DNA of 64,000 nt from Candidatus Nanopelagicales bacterium (GTDB taxonomy: Bacteria > Actinomycetota > Actinomycetes > S36-B12 > UBA10799). This document shows positions 2,465-47,610 of this stretch, piece by piece. The notes beneath the pieces were generated by a model. It worked only from the letters and a program-made list of their open reading frames with translations. It was not told where the DNA came from and searched no databases. The DNA lies in the NCBI GenBank assembly GCA_037046735.1, contig JBAOHC010000021.1:110025-174024 (forward strand), read 5' to 3'. Each line of letters opens with the position of its first letter. Position 1 is the first letter of the stretch. Position numbers and translations under genes: made by a program.

Positions 2465-3020
2465 GCCGGGTCACTCATGTCTCGCGTGAGTCGGACCGGA
2501 ACCTCCCGTCATTCCACCCGACGAGCGGGAGTAGACCCCAAACTGTCAGGTCGACCGATCCTGCTGTCAGGTATCCGATGCAAACGGACACACGAGGACA
2601 AACGGCAGGACATGCGGTCTTCAGTCGACTAACGGCGTCCCAAGCGCGCCTGTCCGTGCCCCTGTGTCTCGCTGTTTGTCTCATGGGTTCGCCTGCCTCT
2701 GAGTGAGTGGCAGGCACGGTTGTCGACGAGGCTGAAACCCCGAGTAGCGGCACCTGTCTCCTCGACCGACGTCGATTTCTACAGCCCGACAGAGTCGGCG
2801 CCGTATAGCGTCCGTTGTGAACAAGGGCGGGTCCGAGAACTGGATATGAGCGTTGGGCACGTTTCAGAGCCTGCGACCGCGGTGCCGGGGCTCACGAACA
2901 CGCCGAGTGCTCATCCATGGCCCAGGCAAGCGGCGCCCACTAGTCCTGCGGCACCGGTGCTGGCCAAACCGCGCACGTTCGCCATCACCTCACGTGAGTG
3001 GCTTGTTCACCGGTCGTCGA

Positions 3021-3156
3021 CCACATCTGGTTGACGCCCCACCAAGATCAACCAGATGTGGACAGACACGCCGCAGTTTCTGTCCGAAATGTCCTTTCCC
3101 ACGGCGCGTCGCTGGTTGGGAACGATCGTGAGCGTCGATCTCCCAACCAGATGTGG
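3021..3156. repeat. copy A of a 135-136 bp palindromic MITE-like intergenic element (inverted relative to copy B)
   Basis: Terminal 13-mers are ccacatctggttg (3021-3033) and caaccagatgtgg (3144-3156). An inner copy, caaccagatgtgg (3049-3061), gives a perfect 14-bp hairpin at the left end. The central inverted repeat is gacacgccg/cggcgcgtc (3065-3073 / 3102-3110). The reverse complement aligns along its whole length with 20487-20621. Confidence 0.8.
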
Positions 3157-3341
3157 ACACGAAACCGGGATCACCCCAAACTGGCGCGGAAGCACCGGAT
3201 GTGTTGTGGTCTCACACCCGAGCAAGACCCGCACGGGAGCCCCCTCCCTGCATGTCACACTCGCCCGTCTCCGAACGCACCCAGAGCAGCACACGCCTTG
3301 TGCCATACTCCAGTGCCGGACGCGTCAACCCAGGAGCAGCC

Positions 3342-5024
3342 ATGAGCGACACCACCAGCTCGGATCCGCTCGAGGCCCTTGGCCCCGACACCCTGCGGAG
3401 CGTTGCTGATTCGCTGTGGCAGTCCGAACTCGACCTGTCATCGCTACCGGACGGGATCCGCATTGCGCTCACCAGCGAGAAGAACAGCCCTGAGGCCTAC
3501 GGCGAGCGCATGCAGGCGTTCCTGCGCTACCTCAGCGAGCATCCCGTGGAGCACGCGCCGAGCTACGAGAAGACCTACGAACACTTGCTGCCCTTCTGCA
3601 CCCGGCTGTCCCCCCAGCAGGCCTATGCGATCTCGGTGAACCTCCTCGGACCACCGGCGTCCATCGGGTACGACATGGTGCCGACGAAGGCGAACTTCGA
3701 GTTCCCCCGTGACTTCGGGCCGAAGCCCCGAAGCGCCGTCGGATGGCACTTCTTCGTCGGGAGTTGCTGGGACGAGGACGGTGCGGAGTACGGCGTGGAG
3801 CTGATGTTCTTCCAGGCCGGGGTCTTCCCGCCACCCGTGGCCGCGGGCTTCGGGCTGACGGAGGACGAGAACCAGGTCGTCGAAGTCCAGTTGGCCGTCA
3901 GCAAAGCCGGCGAGGGTCACTGGCAGGCGGACCCCGTCTGCCTCGGGGGAACCAGTGGTCTGGTCTCGCACACAACGAACCCGTTCAGTTACACGGTCGG
4001 TCGCAACACGATGGCCTGCCACGACGCTGAGCAGTTCTTCCCGATCACGGTCAAGGCCTGGGGAGTGGATAGGGGCGAAACCCCATCCCGCGAGCTCGCG
4101 GTCGACATCACGTTCACCTCGGGAAAGCAGTACCTGTTCCAGGGAGCCGACGGCTGCATGCCCGCGGTCGACGGCGTGGGGTCGTTGTACTACTCGATTC
4201 CCAACATCAGTCTCGACCCGTCCTGCAGCACACTCACCCTCGATGGACGCACCATTCGGCTGGTGCGGGGCCAGTTCTGGTTCGACCGCCAGTGGGGCTA
4301 CATCTCCGGTGTCTCGCGCTCCAAAGTCATGCGCGCCGCCTCGTTCAGCAAGGACCCCAACCCCGCAGGCTGGGACTGGTTCATGGCCCAGTTCCTCGGT
4401 GACCGCCAGATCACCGTGTTCGCCCCGCACGCCAGCGAGCGCTCGCAGTACTACGAGCAGACGGGGCCGGAGCCGCCCGGGACGATGATCGTGCGCGTGG
4501 GCGGCACCTACATGGACGCCGACCGCGGTCAGGCCCTCACCTGGGGAACACTGCGGATCACCGACTGGATCAAGGCCGTCAACTCTCCCAACCCGCAGCG
4601 CTACGCGGTCACCAACACCTGGTACCCCAACCGGTGGGAGTTCGAGTTCGACGACGTCGTGCCCGAAGACATCAGACGCGTGACGATGACCCCGATCGTC
4701 CAGGTCGCGCAGGTGGGCTTCTTCGCCAACGGCGCCCAGTACGCCGAGGGCGCGGTGATCCTGACCGACCCCGATGGCAACGACATCGGGCGCGGCTTTG
4801 CGGAGTCGGTTGCCTATGCCGACACCCGCGACACCGTGCACCGGATTGCTGGGCTCCCGGACAGCCAGGCCCACATCGATTCGCTGTCCCATCGAACGAT
4901 CCCCAAGTCGCTGGCGGTGCTCAACACCGCCTACGTGCTCGCGCATCAGGCCGAACTCGCTGAGGTAGTCAGCCAATCGGTCGGGCTCGAGTTCTTCACC
5001 CAGCCGCAACCGAAACCTGAGTAG
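3342..5024 (+). CDS. AttH/CrtC-like lipocalin-fold protein (divergent, with about 125 aa N-terminal extension)
   Basis: Lies within ORF 3153..5024. The ATG at 3342 is preceded by AGGAG (3332-3336). The core FEFPRDFGPKPRSAVGWHFFVGSCWDEDGAEYGVELMFFQ resembles the AttH/hydroxyneurosporene-synthase-like signature (P.DHG.HP..EWWY.tG...G..fq.tfF). A later block reads LVRGQFWFDRQWGY. Confidence 0.65.
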   Translation: MSDTTSSDPLEALGPDTLRSVADSLWQSELDLSSLPDGIRIALTSEKNSPEAYGERMQAFLRYLSEHPVEHAPSYEKTYEHLLPFCTRLSPQQAYAISVNLLGPPASIGYDMVPTKANFEFPRDFGPKPRSAVGWHFFVGSCWDEDGAEYGVELMFFQAGVFPPPVAAGFGLTEDENQVVEVQLAVSKAGEGHWQADPVCLGGTSGLVSHTTNPFSYTVGRNTMACHDAEQFFPITVKAWGVDRGETPSRELAVDITFTSGKQYLFQGADGCMPAVDGVGSLYYSIPNISLDPSCSTLTLDGRTIRLVRGQFWFDRQWGYISGVSRSKVMRAASFSKDPNPAGWDWFMAQFLGDRQITVFAPHASERSQYYEQTGPEPPGTMIVRVGGTYMDADRGQALTWGTLRITDWIKAVNSPNPQRYAVTNTWYPNRWEFEFDDVVPEDIRRVTMTPIVQVAQVGFFANGAQYAEGAVILTDPDGNDIGRGFAESVAYADTRDTVHRIAGLPDSQAHIDSLSHRTIPKSLAVLNTAYVLAHQAELAEVVSQSVGLEFFTQPQPKPE

Positions 5025-5258
5025 TCCTCGACGCCTACTCGTCTGCCATGTGGCGATGGCTGGGTCGGACCCCAGGCGGGCTGCCACGGTCGCCGCTCAG
5101 TGTCGCCTGATAGTAGCCGGGCGGGGTGTCGCGGCGGTGGTGCACGGCAACCATGTGCGCACCAAGGCCTACCGTCGCCGCATCTGTGGCTGCGAACCGC
5201 ACTTCGCCCGCTCGCTTGCGCCATTCTGGGTGCTGCCAACCAGTCCACGGAGCCGACC

Positions 5259-6257
5259 ATGACCCAAAATTCGACCGGGGGTGCTCGCGCCCGCCAATTC
5301 GGAAGAATCGCGGTGGTAGCCACGGTGGGTTTGTGGCCACCGTTGATCGTCGGCCGACTCATCCTGGGGCCACCCGCGATCACGATGCTGCTCTTCGGCA
5401 CTCTGGTCGGCTTCTTGAACACCGCCGCCGCTGGGAGACGGCTGGGAACGGCCGCCACCATCGCCTTCGTCCTCGTCGCTCCCGTGGCCCTCGTGGCAGG
5501 GCAGGACCCGGTTGCCGGCACCTGCCTGATGGCGCTCGGGTGCCTGGCCGTCGGTACCAGCGCCTACTGGCAGCGGTTCAGCGCGTTCAATGTCGGACTG
5601 GCCGGGACTCTGTTCATCGTGGCCTCCCCCGCCGCCACGACCGACCTCCTGGATGGCGGCCCTGCGCAGTCGGAATACCTGCTGGCGGTCCTGTTTGGCA
5701 CCCTGCTCTGCGGGCTGTGGCCGGTGGCGATACTCCCGCTGCTGCACTTCGTAAAGGACATCCCTGCGCAGGCACACCATGAGAAGGCCGAGACGCTTCG
5801 CTACCTCGTGACGATGACGGTCCTCGTGTCTGCGACGACTTTCTACGCGCTGGCCTTCGCGAGGGACTCGAATGGCCTGTGGCTGCCGCTGACCCTGCTC
5901 ATGGTGTTGCAGATCGCGCCGGACACGACGCGGCACCGGGCTTTCCAGCGGGTCTACGGCACCATCGCCGGAGCGCTCACATCAGCCGTAGTGGCGACCG
6001 TGTTCCACGGCACTTGGGTGATCGCTCTGGTCGCCGTCATCGCCTTCCTGGGCGTACTCGCCACCGTGGGCCATCAGCCGTACAGCTACTACGCGTTCTT
6101 CCTGACCGTCCTGGTCCTTTTGGGTGTCTCGGCCACCGAACCGCCATTGGAGGCGAGCATGCAACGCATCATCTACACGGTGATCGGCTGCGCTCTCGCC
6201 TTGACCGCCTACCTGATTGAGCGACCGTTCATCGCCGATCACACGCCGCCGGAATAG
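5259..6257 (+). CDS. FUSC family membrane protein (aromatic-acid-exporter-like)
   Basis: Lies within ORF 5100..6257, with an internal ATG at 5259 (MTQNSTGGARARQFGRIAVVATVGLW...). It has multiple TM helices and the motif DTTRHRAFQRVYGTIAGAL. It is a paralogue of the partial gene at 1..813. Confidence 0.7.
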   Translation: MTQNSTGGARARQFGRIAVVATVGLWPPLIVGRLILGPPAITMLLFGTLVGFLNTAAAGRRLGTAATIAFVLVAPVALVAGQDPVAGTCLMALGCLAVGTSAYWQRFSAFNVGLAGTLFIVASPAATTDLLDGGPAQSEYLLAVLFGTLLCGLWPVAILPLLHFVKDIPAQAHHEKAETLRYLVTMTVLVSATTFYALAFARDSNGLWLPLTLLMVLQIAPDTTRHRAFQRVYGTIAGALTSAVVATVFHGTWVIALVAVIAFLGVLATVGHQPYSYYAFFLTVLVLLGVSATEPPLEASMQRIIYTVIGCALALTAYLIERPFIADHTPPE

Positions 6258-6713
6258 TCTGTCTCCCTCGACAGCTCTACTCCCCGGGGATGGGCAGCCG
6301 ACCTCACCGGTTCTGGCAGAACGGCCGGACCCGGGAACCGGTGGCCGACATGGGAGCAACAGTCGAAATCCGGTCGGGCTCGACATCATCCACGAGATGG
6401 CTTACGACCAGCCAGGACCGGCGCAAGGCCTCATGCAACGTCATCTGAGCACTCACTTTCAAACCACCCCTCATTTCGTCCCTCTACCAGAGTATCGGCA
6501 TCGGAAATCGTCGCCTGAAGAGGTCCTTCCCACTGATTCCGTCGCGCCTTCGACGTCAGCCATCTCCTGCCATGGCTGAGATGAGCCTGCTGCCTCGTCG
6601 ACGGACAGCCGTGCATTCCTCGCCCCGTTGTGGGCGAGCGCCGACGCGCCCGTCAGTCCGGGCACTTCCCCCGGTCGCTTCGTGCGTCTGTGAAACGGTG
6701 GTACTGTGAAACT

Positions 6714-20028: not shown

Positions 20029-20474
20029 TTGTGGATCTTGATGTACCCCCTCTGCGCACTCGCCGCGGCCATCGTCGCCGTGGTGATGGCTTTGACGACG
20101 GTGCCCGCAGTCGCCACACCGATCCCGGCACCTCCACGAGTCCCGGATGCCGGCCACGCGCTCTCCGCCGTACATAAGAAGCGCTGCGCCAAGAGGCACC
20201 GCAAGAATCGCACATGCAAGGCGGCTGGTGGGACATCTCCTACTACGACGGCAACGCCGACGGCTGGTACGACGCGATGGGGTTCGACCTGAATCCCATC
20301 GACAACATCATGGACTCCTGGTACTCACTGCAGCAGCCAGTCACCGCGAGCGTCTCCCCGCTCGTCTCGGAGAACGTCGTCACCATGAACCTCATCAGGA
20401 CGCAGGACCCTTGGGCGCAGCGGGACCCATGGGGCACCTGGGCGGGGAATGCTGCCAACGATCCGCTCTACTGA
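20029..20474 (+). pseudogene. small secreted protein split over two frames (apparent frameshift near 20200-20225)
   Basis: ORF 20029..20292 begins with a signal peptide (ATG 20041: MYPLCALAAAIVAVVMALTTVPAVA/TP) and loses coding character after ...KNRTCKAA. ORF 20214..20474 (GGWWDISYYDGNADGWYDAMGFDLN...) is strongly GC3-biased but has no signal peptide or SD of its own. A 1-nt indel would join the two. Confidence 0.4.
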
Positions 20475-20486
20475 CGGGCTAGCCCT

Positions 20487-20621
20487 CCACATCTGGTTGG
20501 AGAACCGGCGAACGAGCGCAATTCCAACCACAGACACGCCGACATTCGGTCATATCGGACACGGAACGCGGCGTGTCCCTGCGCATTTGGTTGATCTTGG
20601 TCGGGTGCCAACCAGATGTGG
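20487..20621. repeat. copy B of the 135-136 bp palindromic MITE-like element
   Basis: Terminal 13-mers are ccacatctggttg (20487-20499) and caaccagatgtgg (20609-20621). The central inverted repeat gacacgccg/cggcgtgtc (20533-20541 / 20569-20577) is a perfect 9 bp. The inner 13-mer copies are degenerate (ttccaacca; gcatttggttg). Confidence 0.8.
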
Positions 20622-20655
20622 CGACAGAATGCGCTTACCCGGGTAGAGGACCCGC

Positions 20656-20775
20656 ATGAGTGAGACATCTCCCAGCTACAGCGCACCGATGCACGACGCC
20701 GACGACCTGCAGTCCGTCGAGGAGCAGTTCGACACCGAACCCGCTGGGACTGTCCCCGTCGACGACGAGGACTGA
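20656..20775 (+). CDS. 39-aa highly acidic small ORF upstream of the HipA-like kinase
   Basis: Below the ORF-track size cutoff. ATG 20656 is preceded by GGTAGAGGA. Sequence: MSETSPSYSAPMHDADDLQSVEEQFDTEPAGTVPVDDED*. Codons are GC3-rich, and it ends 35 nt before the kinase start. Confidence 0.3.
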   Translation: MSETSPSYSAPMHDADDLQSVEEQFDTEPAGTVPVDDED

Positions 20776-20810
20776 CCAGCGTTTCCGCTCCGGGCGGTAA
20801 CCTCAACGGT

Positions 20811-21635
20811 GTGCTCCCCCATGTGACCGCGACGCGTTACGTGACGCCGTTACGGGAGGGCGGGTCACTACCCGGGTTGATGGAGGCCGACGACCTCGGC
20901 ACCTACGTCGTCAAGTTCCACGCCGCCGGGCAGGGTCGCAAGGCGCTCGTGGCCGAGGTGATCGCTGGTCGCATTGCCCGTGGCTTGGGTTTGCGGGTGC
21001 CCGATCTTGTGACCGTTGAGGTCGACGCCGTGCTGGCCAATGGCGAGCCGGATCAGGAAGTGCAGGATCTCCTGCGACGAAGTGCGGGGCTCAACCTCGG
21101 GATCGACTTCCTGCCGGGCGCCCTCGACTTCGATCCGGTGGCCTTCCCTCTCGATGCGCAAGAGGCAGGCCGGGTCCTCTGGTTCGACGCGCTGGTCGCG
21201 AATATGGACAGGTCGAGACGAAACCCCAATCTGCTCCAGTGGCAGCAGCTGTGGCTGATCGACCACGGCGCCACCCTGACGTTCCATCATCGATGGGAGA
21301 CCGCCACGGCCAGCGACACCCGTCCGTACGACGCCACGGACCACGTCCTGCTGGGAAGTAATCCAGACGTGCTTGGTGCCAATGATGAATTCGCCGATGC
21401 AGTGACACGTGAGCTCGTGGACGATGCCGTGAGCGACGTGCCGGAGCTGTGGCTCGCAGAGGAACCGGGATTCCGGGACGTCGAAGCCGTCCGGGCCGCT
21501 TACGCTGAACGACTGCTGGCGCGCTTCGCCGCACGCGAACTGTGGTTGCCAGCCCTCCTGGAGGCCGTCGCCCGGCCACCGGCCCCGCGCCGTGTGCAGG
21601 GACGACCTGATTGGCTCGGTGGCAGCAGTGGCTGA
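20811..21635 (+). CDS. HipA-like / PI3-PI4-kinase-fold protein kinase family protein
   Basis: N-terminal block: TPLREGGSLPGLMEADDLGTYVVKFHAAGQG. Catalytic-loop-like block: FDALVANMDRSRRNPNLL. DFG-equivalent: LWLIDHGATL. Confidence 0.7.
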   Translation: MLPHVTATRYVTPLREGGSLPGLMEADDLGTYVVKFHAAGQGRKALVAEVIAGRIARGLGLRVPDLVTVEVDAVLANGEPDQEVQDLLRRSAGLNLGIDFLPGALDFDPVAFPLDAQEAGRVLWFDALVANMDRSRRNPNLLQWQQLWLIDHGATLTFHHRWETATASDTRPYDATDHVLLGSNPDVLGANDEFADAVTRELVDDAVSDVPELWLAEEPGFRDVEAVRAAYAERLLARFAARELWLPALLEAVARPPAPRRVQGRPDWLGGSSG

Positions 21636-22008
21636 GACCCGGGTCCCGTTCGAGTACGCGATCCTGCGGGTCGTGCCTCGCGTCGAGCGCGGTGAGTCGA
21701 TGAATGCCGGCGTGCTGCTGTACTGCCGCGCCTTGGACTTTCTCGGATCCCGCATCCTGCTGGATCGGCAACGCCTGGCCTCCCTGGATCCGGCCTCGGA
21801 CGCCGACCAGATCGAAAGGGCGCTGGCTGCAGCGGCCGACTGCACCCCACAGCAGGACGACGACATCGGCAAGCGATTCCGGTGGCTGACCGCGCCACGC
21901 AGCACGGTTGTCCAGCCAGGCCCCATCCACACCGGCCTGACTCACGACCCCGACGCCGACCTCGCTCGGTTGCTGGCAGTGTTGGTGGAGCCTCCCCACT
22001 CGCGCTGA
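21628..22008 (+). CDS. DUF3037 domain protein
   Basis: GTG 21628, in frame within ORF 21592..22008, overlaps the kinase stop (GTGGCTGA). FEYAILRVVPRVERGESMNAGVLLYC...RFRWLTAPRSTVVQPGPIH matches my memory of the DUF3037 family. Confidence 0.7.
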   Translation: MAETRVPFEYAILRVVPRVERGESMNAGVLLYCRALDFLGSRILLDRQRLASLDPASDADQIERALAAAADCTPQQDDDIGKRFRWLTAPRSTVVQPGPIHTGLTHDPDADLARLLAVLVEPPHSR

Positions 22009-22027: not shown

Positions 22028-23191
22028 CTACAATTGAGGTTCTGGCGGAAGCTCCGCGCCTTTAGCCTGACGCTGGGCCACCCGGATCGCTGCCTGCCAA
22101 GCGTCATAGGCCTGGCCGTAGCGCAGCGTGATGCGGTCGGATTCGTCCTGGAACTGTTGCCACTGAGAGTTGAATTCGAAGTAGCACTCGCCGTAGAAAC
22201 ACTCGGCGTTGTCGAGCGCGCCCACCGCAGCGTCGATGGCATCCGCACCGTCACCCAGCACCGTGACGATCCGGCCATGCACACCTCGCAGGTCTGTCGG
22301 CGGTCGCAGGGCAGCCATACTGTTGGCGATCTCGCGTCGGTCCTCGGCGGCCTGGGAGAAGTAGTCCGTGACTTCGAACATGTACATCTGCTCGCTGTCC
22401 ATGCGGCCGACGAAAGTCCCCGTGTCGTTGCGCAGCGCGGTGTACCTATCAATCAACGGTTCCATCTGAGCGTGGTAAGACCGCACATCGGCGCGCTGCG
22501 CCTGCGCAGCCAGGCGGGCCTTCTTGACCTGCCGCTTGTACCGAGCCATCTCCTTGTCAACCCGGTCAGTCAGGTCATCGAGCGTGCGGACGGCGTCGTC
22601 ACCCTGGGCGCTCGCCTCCACGGTTGGGTCACCATAAGAGCTGAGCGTGTCGAGGTTCGACACCAGTACTTCGCGGTTATCGGTCCACACGACCGTGTTG
22701 TCCTGGGTGTATTCCGTGAGCGCAGCTAGCGCTCCCAGGGCGTCACGCAGCGTCGTGAGTCGATCGGCACCTTTTGCCGCGGGGTCACTGTCGAGGACAG
22801 CATCAATCGATGTCACCTGAGTAGCCGCCTGCTCGGCGACATCTCGCACCATCGTCGTGCTCTGAGCCGCTGACATATCGTCCAACGTCCCCATGAGCAC
22901 TGGGGTGGAGGCTTCGTATTCATCCTTCGCTGCACTGTTCTGACTGAGGCCCCACCAGGCGGCCCCGATCAGGATGATGCCGATCGCGGCAACGCCACCA
23001 AGGATGACCCAGAACCTGGGTTTGCGCCTCGCTGTCGCGACAACCGCTTTCGGTGGAGGCGCTTCGACGTCAATCTCAACGTCCTGGTTGGCGATTCGCT
23101 CGGGCGCGGGATGCCCACACTCCGCGCAGAACTTGTCCTCGGGATGCAACGGGTGCGAGCACTCGGAGCAGATCTGCGCGGCGTCGTCCAT
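22028..23191 (-). CDS. zinc-ribbon membrane-anchored protein, coiled-coil-rich ectodomain
   Basis: Zinc ribbon: MDDAAQICSECSHPLHPEDKFCAECGHP (CxxC...CxxC). TM helix: FWVILGGVAAIGIILIGAAWW. The external domain is long, helical and Ala/Asp-rich. Confidence 0.7.
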   Translation of the reverse strand: MDDAAQICSECSHPLHPEDKFCAECGHPAPERIANQDVEIDVEAPPPKAVVATARRKPRFWVILGGVAAIGIILIGAAWWGLSQNSAAKDEYEASTPVLMGTLDDMSAAQSTTMVRDVAEQAATQVTSIDAVLDSDPAAKGADRLTTLRDALGALAALTEYTQDNTVVWTDNREVLVSNLDTLSSYGDPTVEASAQGDDAVRTLDDLTDRVDKEMARYKRQVKKARLAAQAQRADVRSYHAQMEPLIDRYTALRNDTGTFVGRMDSEQMYMFEVTDYFSQAAEDRREIANSMAALRPPTDLRGVHGRIVTVLGDGADAIDAAVGALDNAECFYGECYFEFNSQWQQFQDESDRITLRYGQAYDAWQAAIRVAQRQAKGAELPPEPQL

Positions 23192-46867: not shown

Positions 46868-46917
46868 GGACCCAGGCTAACTCGTGTTCGAAGGTGCTCT
46901 GGGCGGCGATGGGTCTA

Positions 46918-47052
46918 CACATCTGGTTGAGAAGACTGCCCCAAAGACCGTTTGCAACCAGATGTGTAGGACAAATGTCCGTTAAGCCCTGTTTGTACCC
47001 CGCAATTTCTACACATCTGGTTGGCGGTTCCACCCGCTCAACCAGATGTGTA
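46918..47052. repeat. copy C (best preserved) of the 135-136 bp palindromic MITE-like element
   Basis: There are four perfect copies of the 13-mer: acacatctggttg at 46918 and 47012, and caaccagatgtgt at 46956 and 47040. They form two perfect 15-16 bp hairpins and, together, 13-17 bp terminal inverted repeats. The right arm supplies the last codons and stop of the GNAT gene (..GVYTSG*). Confidence 0.85.
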
Positions 47053-47610
47053 GACGCCGCCGCCCAACCGGGTCCGCTGCCGACCATCGGGGTCGAAATT
47101 CGCCGGGTCGAGCCACGCGAGAACCTGCCGGCGCCGGTTGGGCCACTCATGATCAAGCAGGGAGAACCAGGCCGTGTCACGATTGCGGCCATTGACGACC
47201 ATGTGTTGGCGAAACACCCCCTCGAAGGTGAAACCGAAGCGCAGCGCGGCGGCCTTGCTCGCCTCGTTGCGGTTGTCACACTTCCACTCGACCCGACGCG
47301 CACCCCAGTCGAAGAGATGGTCAGCCATCAGCAACACCGCCTCGGTCGATGCCGGGGTTCGGCGCATCTGCGGCCCCCACAGGACATGCCCGATCTCGGC
47401 CACGCGGTTGGGCTCGTCGATCCGCATGATTGCCGCGCGTCCGACCGGCTGGCCGTCGATCAACGCCGCGAAGAACAACGGGTCGTCACTGGTCAGCCCA
47501 TCGTCGAACCAGTCCGGTGAGGCGAACTCGTGCTGGAGGTCGGCCAGCGGCCGGTGTGACTCCTCGATCGGCTCGAGGGTCACGTAACGGCCCCGCAGGA
47601 CTGCCCGCAT
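47038..47610 (-). CDS. GNAT-family N-acetyltransferase
   Basis: Internal ATG 47610 overlaps the purL stop (TGATG). ...IGHVLWGPQMRRTPASTEAVLLMADHLFDWGARRVEWKCDNRNEASKAAALRFGFTFEG. Equivalent position to Rv0802c. Confidence 0.85.
   Translation of the reverse strand: MRAVLRGRYVTLEPIEESHRPLADLQHEFASPDWFDDGLTSDDPLFFAALIDGQPVGRAAIMRIDEPNRVAEIGHVLWGPQMRRTPASTEAVLLMADHLFDWGARRVEWKCDNRNEASKAAALRFGFTFEGVFRQHMVVNGRNRDTAWFSLLDHEWPNRRRQVLAWLDPANFDPDGRQRTRLGGGVYTSG

Follow-up and report, generated by a model that had tools for sequence, protein, structure and literature searches.

A predicted HipA_2 kinase/DUF3037 operon and a clade-specific acidic micro-ORF in a Candidatus Nanopelagicales genome, compared with PDC-M66, DS-6/HipAD and Retron-Sda1

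A pair of genes for a HipA-like kinase and a DUF3037 protein was found inside the Retron-Sda1 operon, and such pairs were identified as PDC-M66, DUF3037 being strongly tied to HipA-like proteins among homologues (PMC12548924). The Sda1 pair protects Escherichia coli against phage Bas51 without need of the retron reverse transcriptase (RT) or non-coding RNA (ncRNA); deletion of the kinase abolished defence, and deletion of the DUF3037 gene was toxic (PMC12548924). The DS-6 system of E. coli was likewise validated (DefensePredictor) and renamed HipAD, with credit to Brenes and Laub 2025; the catalytic mutant D139A of its kinase DS-6A lost defence, and AlphaFold3 predicts a DS-6A:DS-6B complex with an interface predicted template-modelling score (ipTM) of 0.76-0.79 (PMC13092281). 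Here we analysed a HipA_2-family kinase gene, the DUF3037 gene that overlaps it and a 39-amino-acid (aa) acidic open reading frame (micro-ORF) upstream of both, in a 64,000-nucleotide (nt) stretch of Candidatus Nanopelagicales DNA (contig JBAOHC010000021.1), hereafter the window. A first-pass annotation of the window had stated that the function of this pairing was not established, which is out of date because homologues, listed by PADLOC as the phage-defence candidate PDC-M66, have been tested as an anti-phage pair of kinase toxin and neutraliser (PMC12548924, PMC13092281). Since the family has already been characterised, the locus is not a new kind of system, and the value of the comparison is corrective: a pairing flagged as functionally unknown belongs to a family characterised by experiment in 2025-2026. 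The reading that we favour, with moderate confidence, is that the locus is a self-contained HipA_2/DUF3037 operon of the family that includes PDC-M66, DS-6/HipAD and the Retron-Sda1 pair, encoding a kinase toxin and its neutraliser.

The kinase gene (20811-21635, forward strand, GTG start) encodes a HipA_2-family atypical protein kinase of 274 aa, as assigned from Pfam, PADLOC, conservation and an AlphaFold model. The protein matched Pfam HipA_2 (PF20613) over residues 14-245 (E=1e-19; 71.2 bits, cut-off 27) and PADLOC PDC-M66A (E=4.4e-23); HipA_2 alone was matched, with no Pfam match to HipA_N or HipA_C. The motifs NMDRSRRNPN and LIDHG hold the catalytic D133 (21207-21209), N138 (21222-21224) and D151 of the D-H-G triplet (from 21261), all on the forward strand, and these residues, together with K35 (20913-20915, forward strand) and E49, were invariant in an alignment of 46 kinase homologues. 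The PF20613 match and the invariance of D133, N138 and D151 bear out the first-pass annotation, which had placed a HipA-like kinase here and pointed to the two motifs. As judged from the alignment, the catalytic apparatus is complete and invariant.

The AlphaFold model of the kinase (predicted local distance difference test, pLDDT, 87.8) matched Helicobacter pylori CtkA, PI4KIIalpha and Fam20 kinases with probability 1.0 and template-modelling (TM) scores of ~0.5, the best match being the protein kinase CtkA. The modelled fold is consistent with the HipA-like/PI3-4K-like class of atypical kinases. Among PDB sequences, the kinase-family profile returned nothing at E<=10, and sequence and profile searches with the kinase and DUF3037 families gave no meaningful match. 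Against the SCO1664 family (TIGR03843), the kinase scored 12.8 bits (NCBIfam cut-off 172.4), the catalytic-loop region alone being aligned. An antisense ORF across the kinase, chosen by a crude gene caller based on GC content at third codon positions, was set aside on homology evidence. One kinase homologue (P0182) is named 'aminotransferase class I and II' at NCBI, which looks like a misannotation.

The downstream gene (21628-22008, forward strand) encodes a DUF3037 protein of 126 aa, a short form without a C-terminal domain, which Pfam, PADLOC and homologues point to as the predicted partner and neutraliser of the kinase. It matched the full-length domain of Pfam PF11236 (E=2.6e-35; 121.6 bits, cut-off 22.6) and PADLOC PDC-M66B (E=3.1e-7), the latter partially, residues 20-84 aligning to positions 4-68 of the 281-position profile. 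The PADLOC profile of the partner thus models the long form. The mechanical ORF opens at 21592; the GTG at 21628 was adopted as the start because the closest homologues are exactly 126 aa long and gene calls in sister and same-species contigs share the resulting 8-nt overlap with the kinase. Homologues of the protein numbered 5,673, mostly of ~126 aa, and a search of 1.84 billion cluster representatives returned 1,516 clusters at E<=1e-3, most of them 125-135 aa long, which makes the short form the rule in the family and the validated systems the exceptions. A C-terminal extension accordingly marks the validated subgroup and not the family as a whole.

Two family-wide motifs, Y.YA.LR.VP..ERGE..N.G and RF.WL.APRST..Q..P.H.G, contain the near-invariant residues Y10, P17, R21, E23, N26, G28, R83, F84, H101 and G103. 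Compared by Foldseek with a copy of the PDB in which HipS and HipB structures would be expected, the model of the DUF3037 protein (pLDDT 91.8) had no significant match (best E=0.6); at the level that Foldseek detects, the protein is therefore unlike HipB, HipS or the HipA N-domain. Since it lacks the C-terminal DUF1829-like or DNA-binding region, the partner is not expected to bind DNA or to autoregulate. N-terminal DUF3037 domains fused to NUDIX, Fic/DOC or nitronate-monooxygenase domains were seen in three records of the representative library (P0242, P0339 and P0348), either as real fusions or as merged gene calls. Apparent kinase-DUF3037 fusions in the representative library showed partial, sub-threshold HipA_2 matches, perhaps through frameshift or read-through, and were not used as evidence of interaction.

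The two genes overlap by 8 nt (GTGGCTGA, 21628-21635, forward strand), the GTG start of the DUF3037 gene lying over the TGA stop of the kinase gene. The overlap noted in the first-pass annotation was read directly from the sequence and recurs in gene calls on same-species and sister contigs. We assembled a co-occurrence set of 80 loci with DUF3037 relatives, one genome per species, from Actinomycetota, Chloroflexota and other phyla, in a scan that relied on fixed peptide patterns. The kinase lay directly 5' of DUF3037 in 78 of the 79 loci that could be tested by tblastn, the remaining locus of the 80 having no upstream DNA; the single unpaired gene (L073) is a true orphan, preceded by a gene on the opposite strand. 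Overlaps were found at 69 of the 78 junctions, 52 of them as 4-nt RTGA overlaps and 17 ranging from 1 to 22 nt, and the few outliers resemble frameshifts in metagenome bins built from long reads. The same short pair is present on a Bacteroides finegoldii plasmid, annotated as 'HipA family kinase' and 'DUF3037 domain-containing protein', and this pair and one on a Streptomyces plasmid share the arrangement of kinase gene first and DUF3037 gene next to it on the same strand. The overlaps thus show translational coupling to be conserved in the family, in keeping with the co-expression proposed in the first-pass annotation. The pair is a predicted two-gene operon whose overlap is conserved across phyla.

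Upstream of the kinase, a predicted -10 hexamer (TAACCT, 20798-20803, forward strand) ends 7 nt before the GTG start and occupies a conserved TANNNT position. A scripted analysis of the actinobacterial TANNNT motif put it 6-8 nt upstream of the kinase start codon in 69 of the 80 loci, with no TANNNT at other offsets between 0 and 39; an SD-like (Shine-Dalgarno-like) core preceded the kinase in only two of the 80, and a sigma-70 consensus scan found no promoter. Mapped transcription starts in Mycobacterium tuberculosis have a TANNNT centred 7-12 bp upstream, and leaderless expression was seen there for 32 of 37 toxin-antitoxin (TA) gene pairs (PMC3898074). Because the TANNNT position is conserved and SD-like cores are almost absent, we predict that the operon is probably driven by a promoter of its own and read as a leaderless mRNA whose 5' end lies at or near 20811. 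Automatic calls in public assemblies (L081-L084 and L092-L096) make the kinase 307 aa or 251 aa long. The conserved N-terminus and the spacing from the -10 box indicate that the GTG start giving 274 aa is preferable to both. This regular leaderless-promoter signature, combined with start-stop coupling, offers a precise model of expression and would correct the public kinase start calls. One uncultured Corynebacteriales contig (L008) has no TANNNT box before the kinase; there a 45-aa acidic, proline-rich ORF (~4890-5026) ends 2 nt before the kinase (5027), and it is unrelated to the micro-ORF of the window, being perhaps an independent upstream ORF or a different arrangement of expression.

Under the favoured reading, the operon would be transcribed from its own -10 box as a leaderless mRNA, as the conserved motif suggests, and ribosomes ending the kinase would re-initiate at DUF3037, tying the output of the two proteins together. 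By homology to the tested members, the kinase would be a growth-arresting Ser/Thr kinase and the DUF3037 protein would bind and neutralise it. Release of the kinase, for example upon phage infection or stress, would then arrest the cell. The acidic 39-aa ORF would be a clade-specific addition upstream of the operon promoter and not a third subunit.

DS-6 is reportedly derived from E. coli prophages, going by the title of the study of Brenes and Laub (Cell Host Microbe, 2025). Like the window pair, DS-6/HipAD consists of a HipA_2-type kinase followed by DUF3037 in the same gene order, with an overlap of 4 nt. Aligned by hhalign with the window kinase-family profile, DS-6A gave a probability of 97.5% (E=8.8e-12, 191 columns), with its D139 falling on D133; the DS-6A and DS-6B sequences were taken from the supplement of PMC13092281. 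DS-6B differs in being 275 aa long and in carrying a DUF1829-like region (163-260) with predicted DNA contact, as against 126 aa here; the window pair also lies on a chromosome, keeps its synteny within lineages and evolves under strong purifying selection. PDC-M66 is shared in so far as both proteins match its profiles, although the matches are partial and there is no defence-island context. The Retron-Sda1 pair likewise combines a HipA-like kinase with DUF3037, but it adjoins the RT and ncRNA of a retron, and the C-terminal region of its DUF3037 protein resembles a retron DNA-binding protein; none of these is present here.

The classical type II toxin-antitoxin system HipBA and the window pair have in common a Ser/Thr kinase of atypical type, which has the HipA/CtkA/PI3-4K-like fold and the motifs D-x4-N and D-x-G, and, as predicted here, a small neutralising partner. 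It differs in having no helix-turn-helix (HTH) HipB and in placing the partner, which has an unrelated fold, downstream rather than upstream. E. coli HipA is ~170 aa longer than the kinase here. HipBST resembles the pair in its short HipA-like kinase, lacking the HipA N-terminal subdomain, and in its small separate partner protein, whereas the conserved system here has two genes instead of three and no HTH protein, and the micro-ORF is not conserved; no HTH protein was found adjacent to the pair. The HipS partner of HipBST resembles the HipA N-subdomain. The Hip-kinase phylogeny paper of Gerdes makes no mention of DUF3037. The first-pass annotation had drawn an analogy with HipBST, which fails on the DUF3037 protein: it has no fold match to any solved structure. 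Its broader interpretation holds up in part: a toxin with a small neutraliser is plausible, but a third component is not supported.

Several results weigh against the reading as a toxin and neutraliser. The match to PDC-M66A was limited to residues 1-160 of the kinase, identity to DS-6/HipAD is low (~29% for the kinase and 25% for the DUF3037 protein), and DS-6B is only distantly alike, its residues 4-128 aligning to DUF3037 with a probability of 80% (E=1.4e-5). Both validated partners, DS-6B and the Sda1 protein, have a C-terminal domain, which the window protein lacks. The polar motifs of DUF3037 are strongly conserved, which is unusual for an antitoxin, and kinase identity between Actinomycetota and Bacteroidota is 46-49%. 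Across the 80 loci, no integrase or defence gene was found near the pair, and the neighbourhoods were of a housekeeping kind, syntenic within lineages and unlike a typical defence or TA cassette. The neighbours included SDR reductases, uracil-DNA glycosylase, a Rieske protein, a LysR regulator, Lpd, CbiX and ABC transporters, with SDR-SDR-Ung synteny in Streptomyces-like genomes and Lpd plus CbiX in Nocardioidaceae; in the window, the two genes are flanked by a POR-like/GltD-like oxidoreductase pair on one side and by TPR, Usp and permease genes on the other. The kinase turned up on 9 of 72,556 plasmids, among them several megareplicons, and the phage search with the kinase gave one weak hit. 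Both genes are under equally strong purifying selection, the ratio of non-synonymous to synonymous substitution rates (dN/dS) being ~0.1 (0.08-0.17 for the kinase, 0.10-0.11 for DUF3037) and equal to that of the neighbouring TPR gene.

The housekeeping context, the rarity on plasmids and phages and the strong purifying selection thus leave room for a second explanation, which we regard as possible but rather doubtful: the short-form pair, instead of being a selfish TA or defence system, would be a vertically inherited housekeeping or regulatory module, with DUF3037 as the obligate subunit, the activator or the substrate of a kinase whose action on a cellular protein belongs to normal physiology or to a stress response. 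The high cross-phylum conservation, the near-invariant polar residues R21, E23, N26, R83 and H101, which suggest a functional site, and the prevalence of the short form across the 1,516 clusters also speak for it. The tested homologues, however, act as toxin and neutraliser and defend against phage, and gene order, overlap and the catalytic Asp are common to them and the window pair. Actinobacterial TA modules typically form leaderless, tightly coupled operons, the orphan DUF3037 gene is what would be expected of an antitoxin remnant, and the spread of the pair in Actinomycetota, as scanned with fixed peptide patterns, looks patchy and not universal. A defence role for this chromosomal short-form pair is accordingly put forward as an unproven candidate only. 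The validated systems are atypical long forms, and the common short form, which looks like a stable pair of chromosomal genes, raises the question of whether 'defence' fits most of the family.

A further scenario, which we consider improbable, starts from the short form as the majority of the family, leaderless, inherited vertically among housekeeping genes and strongly constrained by purifying selection in Actinomycetota, Chloroflexota and Bacteroidota. It would be no selfish TA or defence cassette but a conserved module of cellular signalling, in which DUF3037, with its near-invariant polar motifs and without a fold match among solved structures, is the obligate partner or the substrate of the kinase; the prophage and retron defence versions would be later co-options, and the acidic peptide would have been recruited as an extra modulator in one clade.

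The micro-ORF (20656-20775, forward strand; peptide MSETSPSYSAPMHDADDLQSVEEQFDTEPAGTVPVDDED) encodes 39 aa, of which 31% are Asp or Glu, with neither Lys nor Arg among them, and a gap of 35 nt separates it from the kinase start. The first-pass annotation had proposed it as a third component or substrate mimic, and a tripartite, HipBST-like system in which the peptide serves as substrate mimic, inhibitor or regulator has some points in its favour. Four close lineages retain its reading frame together with the start and stop codons, the single indel being in frame, and this retention suggests that the ORF, confined to a narrow clade, may be translated. Its GC content by codon position (0.68/0.42/0.80) is coding-like, and the ratio of non-synonymous to synonymous differences (pN/pS) is ~0.4-0.5 (Fisher p=0.004-0.03 against L085, the most divergent lineage). 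Because the peptide is too short for a direct homologue search, a three-sequence alignment served as the query for a profile search of 5.8 billion proteins, which returned four clusters, all of 39 aa and all from the same narrow clade. These relatives always occupy the same position upstream of the kinase, and gene callers predict the micro-ORF in several public assemblies.

The evidence on the other side is broader. By tblastn, the micro-ORF was absent from all 80 loci of other species, an acidic small ORF of unrelated sequence lying upstream in one of them (L008). In the next-closest lineage and nearest outgroup (L088, DUF3037 82% identical), only 2 nt separate the end of an amino-acid permease gene from the kinase, which leaves no room for the micro-ORF. 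In DNA of 65% GC, chance ORFs of this length are nothing unusual, and dozens of ORFs of at least 30 aa overlap the region. The micro-ORF is conserved no better than flanking non-coding DNA and evolves faster than the core genes by a factor of four to five (dN/dS 0.35-0.44 versus ~0.1). It also sits 5' of the conserved -10 box and the predicted leaderless start of the operon, and it has no Pfam, NCBIfam or PADLOC match. As for the Shine-Dalgarno (SD) sequence of its own that had been ascribed to it, the ORF and a GAGGA are present here, but the SD is not conserved, relatives having GTGAC, ATCAC or GAAGG instead. The absence from other species and from the nearest outgroup, the restriction to four lineages, the weak constraint and the position upstream of the promoter, together with a DUF3037 protein that resembles no solved structure, make a tripartite system highly improbable. 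On this comparative evidence, the micro-ORF is not a component of the conserved two-gene system, and it may be a real clade-specific small protein.

That the kinase acts on a small molecule or lipid (an antibiotic or metabolite), with DUF3037 as an accessory, rather than as a protein-kinase toxin, is just as remote a prospect: the structural neighbours do include the lipid kinase PI4KIIalpha and Fam20-type kinases, and one Streptomyces plasmid pair stands in an apparent polyketide cluster, by facT, but the best structural match is a protein kinase, tested homologues are toxic in E. coli with no special substrate added, and the biosynthetic setting is confined to one plasmid lineage, most contexts being unrelated housekeeping genes. 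The plasmid pair in question (L091, 4031-5172 of the Streptomyces sp. 2P-4 plasmid NZ_CP095012.1) lies between a phosphopantetheinyl transferase (PPTase) gene and ccrA, and adjoins a TetR gene and the elfamycin exporter gene facT. A hit on an S. globosus plasmid (H4) has a similar record position, and its identity and score are equal to those of this pair.

A composite palindromic intergenic repeat of ~135 nt (20484-20625, no strand assigned) lies directly upstream of the module, as the first-pass annotation had recorded. The element is real: it has four CACATCTGGTTG half-sites, which form two palindromes with spacers of ~22 and ~13 nt, and perfect 14-nt inverted-repeat arms at 20487-20500 and 20608-20621. 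Its fold is a single long hairpin (z=-3.8), and comparison of the whole window with Rfam gave no RNA family, in the element or elsewhere. The window holds three copies (~3019-3165, 20484-20625 and ~46915-47053), ~7 weak hits being expected by chance. The other two copies lie between ECF sigma and CrtC-like genes and between GNAT and SCP-like genes, and the copy at the module is conserved upstream of it in the sister lineages L081 and L085. A role as an operator specific to the module was rejected because the other copies adjoin unrelated genes; the element is a dispersed intergenic repeat next to the module and could be related to repetitive extragenic palindromes (REP) or miniature inverted-repeat transposable elements (MITE), or be a binding-site array for a global regulator.

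Around the module, the window is 99% identical to same-species metagenome-assembled contigs, with one marked difference. At 20207-20222, ~245 nt are missing inside a secreted-protein gene relative to these contigs (L094, 4307-4566), and this loss splits the gene into ORFs at 20029-20292 and 20214-20474 in different frames. The secreted protein is 212-225 aa long and repeat-rich, with D-x-N-x-D-G-like repeats, and the gap may reflect a true deletion, a pseudogene or a collapse in the assembly. Downstream, a gene convergent with DUF3037 (22028-23191, reverse strand) encodes a 387-aa protein with an N-terminal zinc ribbon and a weak PADLOC match to PD-T4-6 (E=6e-4); it is present in this species and absent from the sister lineages L081 and L085, which points to an indel. 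In L088, the pair (5175-6369) stands directly 3' of an amino-acid permease gene, while in the clade of the window the same Usp and permease genes lie 3' of the pair, indicating that a local rearrangement moved the module.

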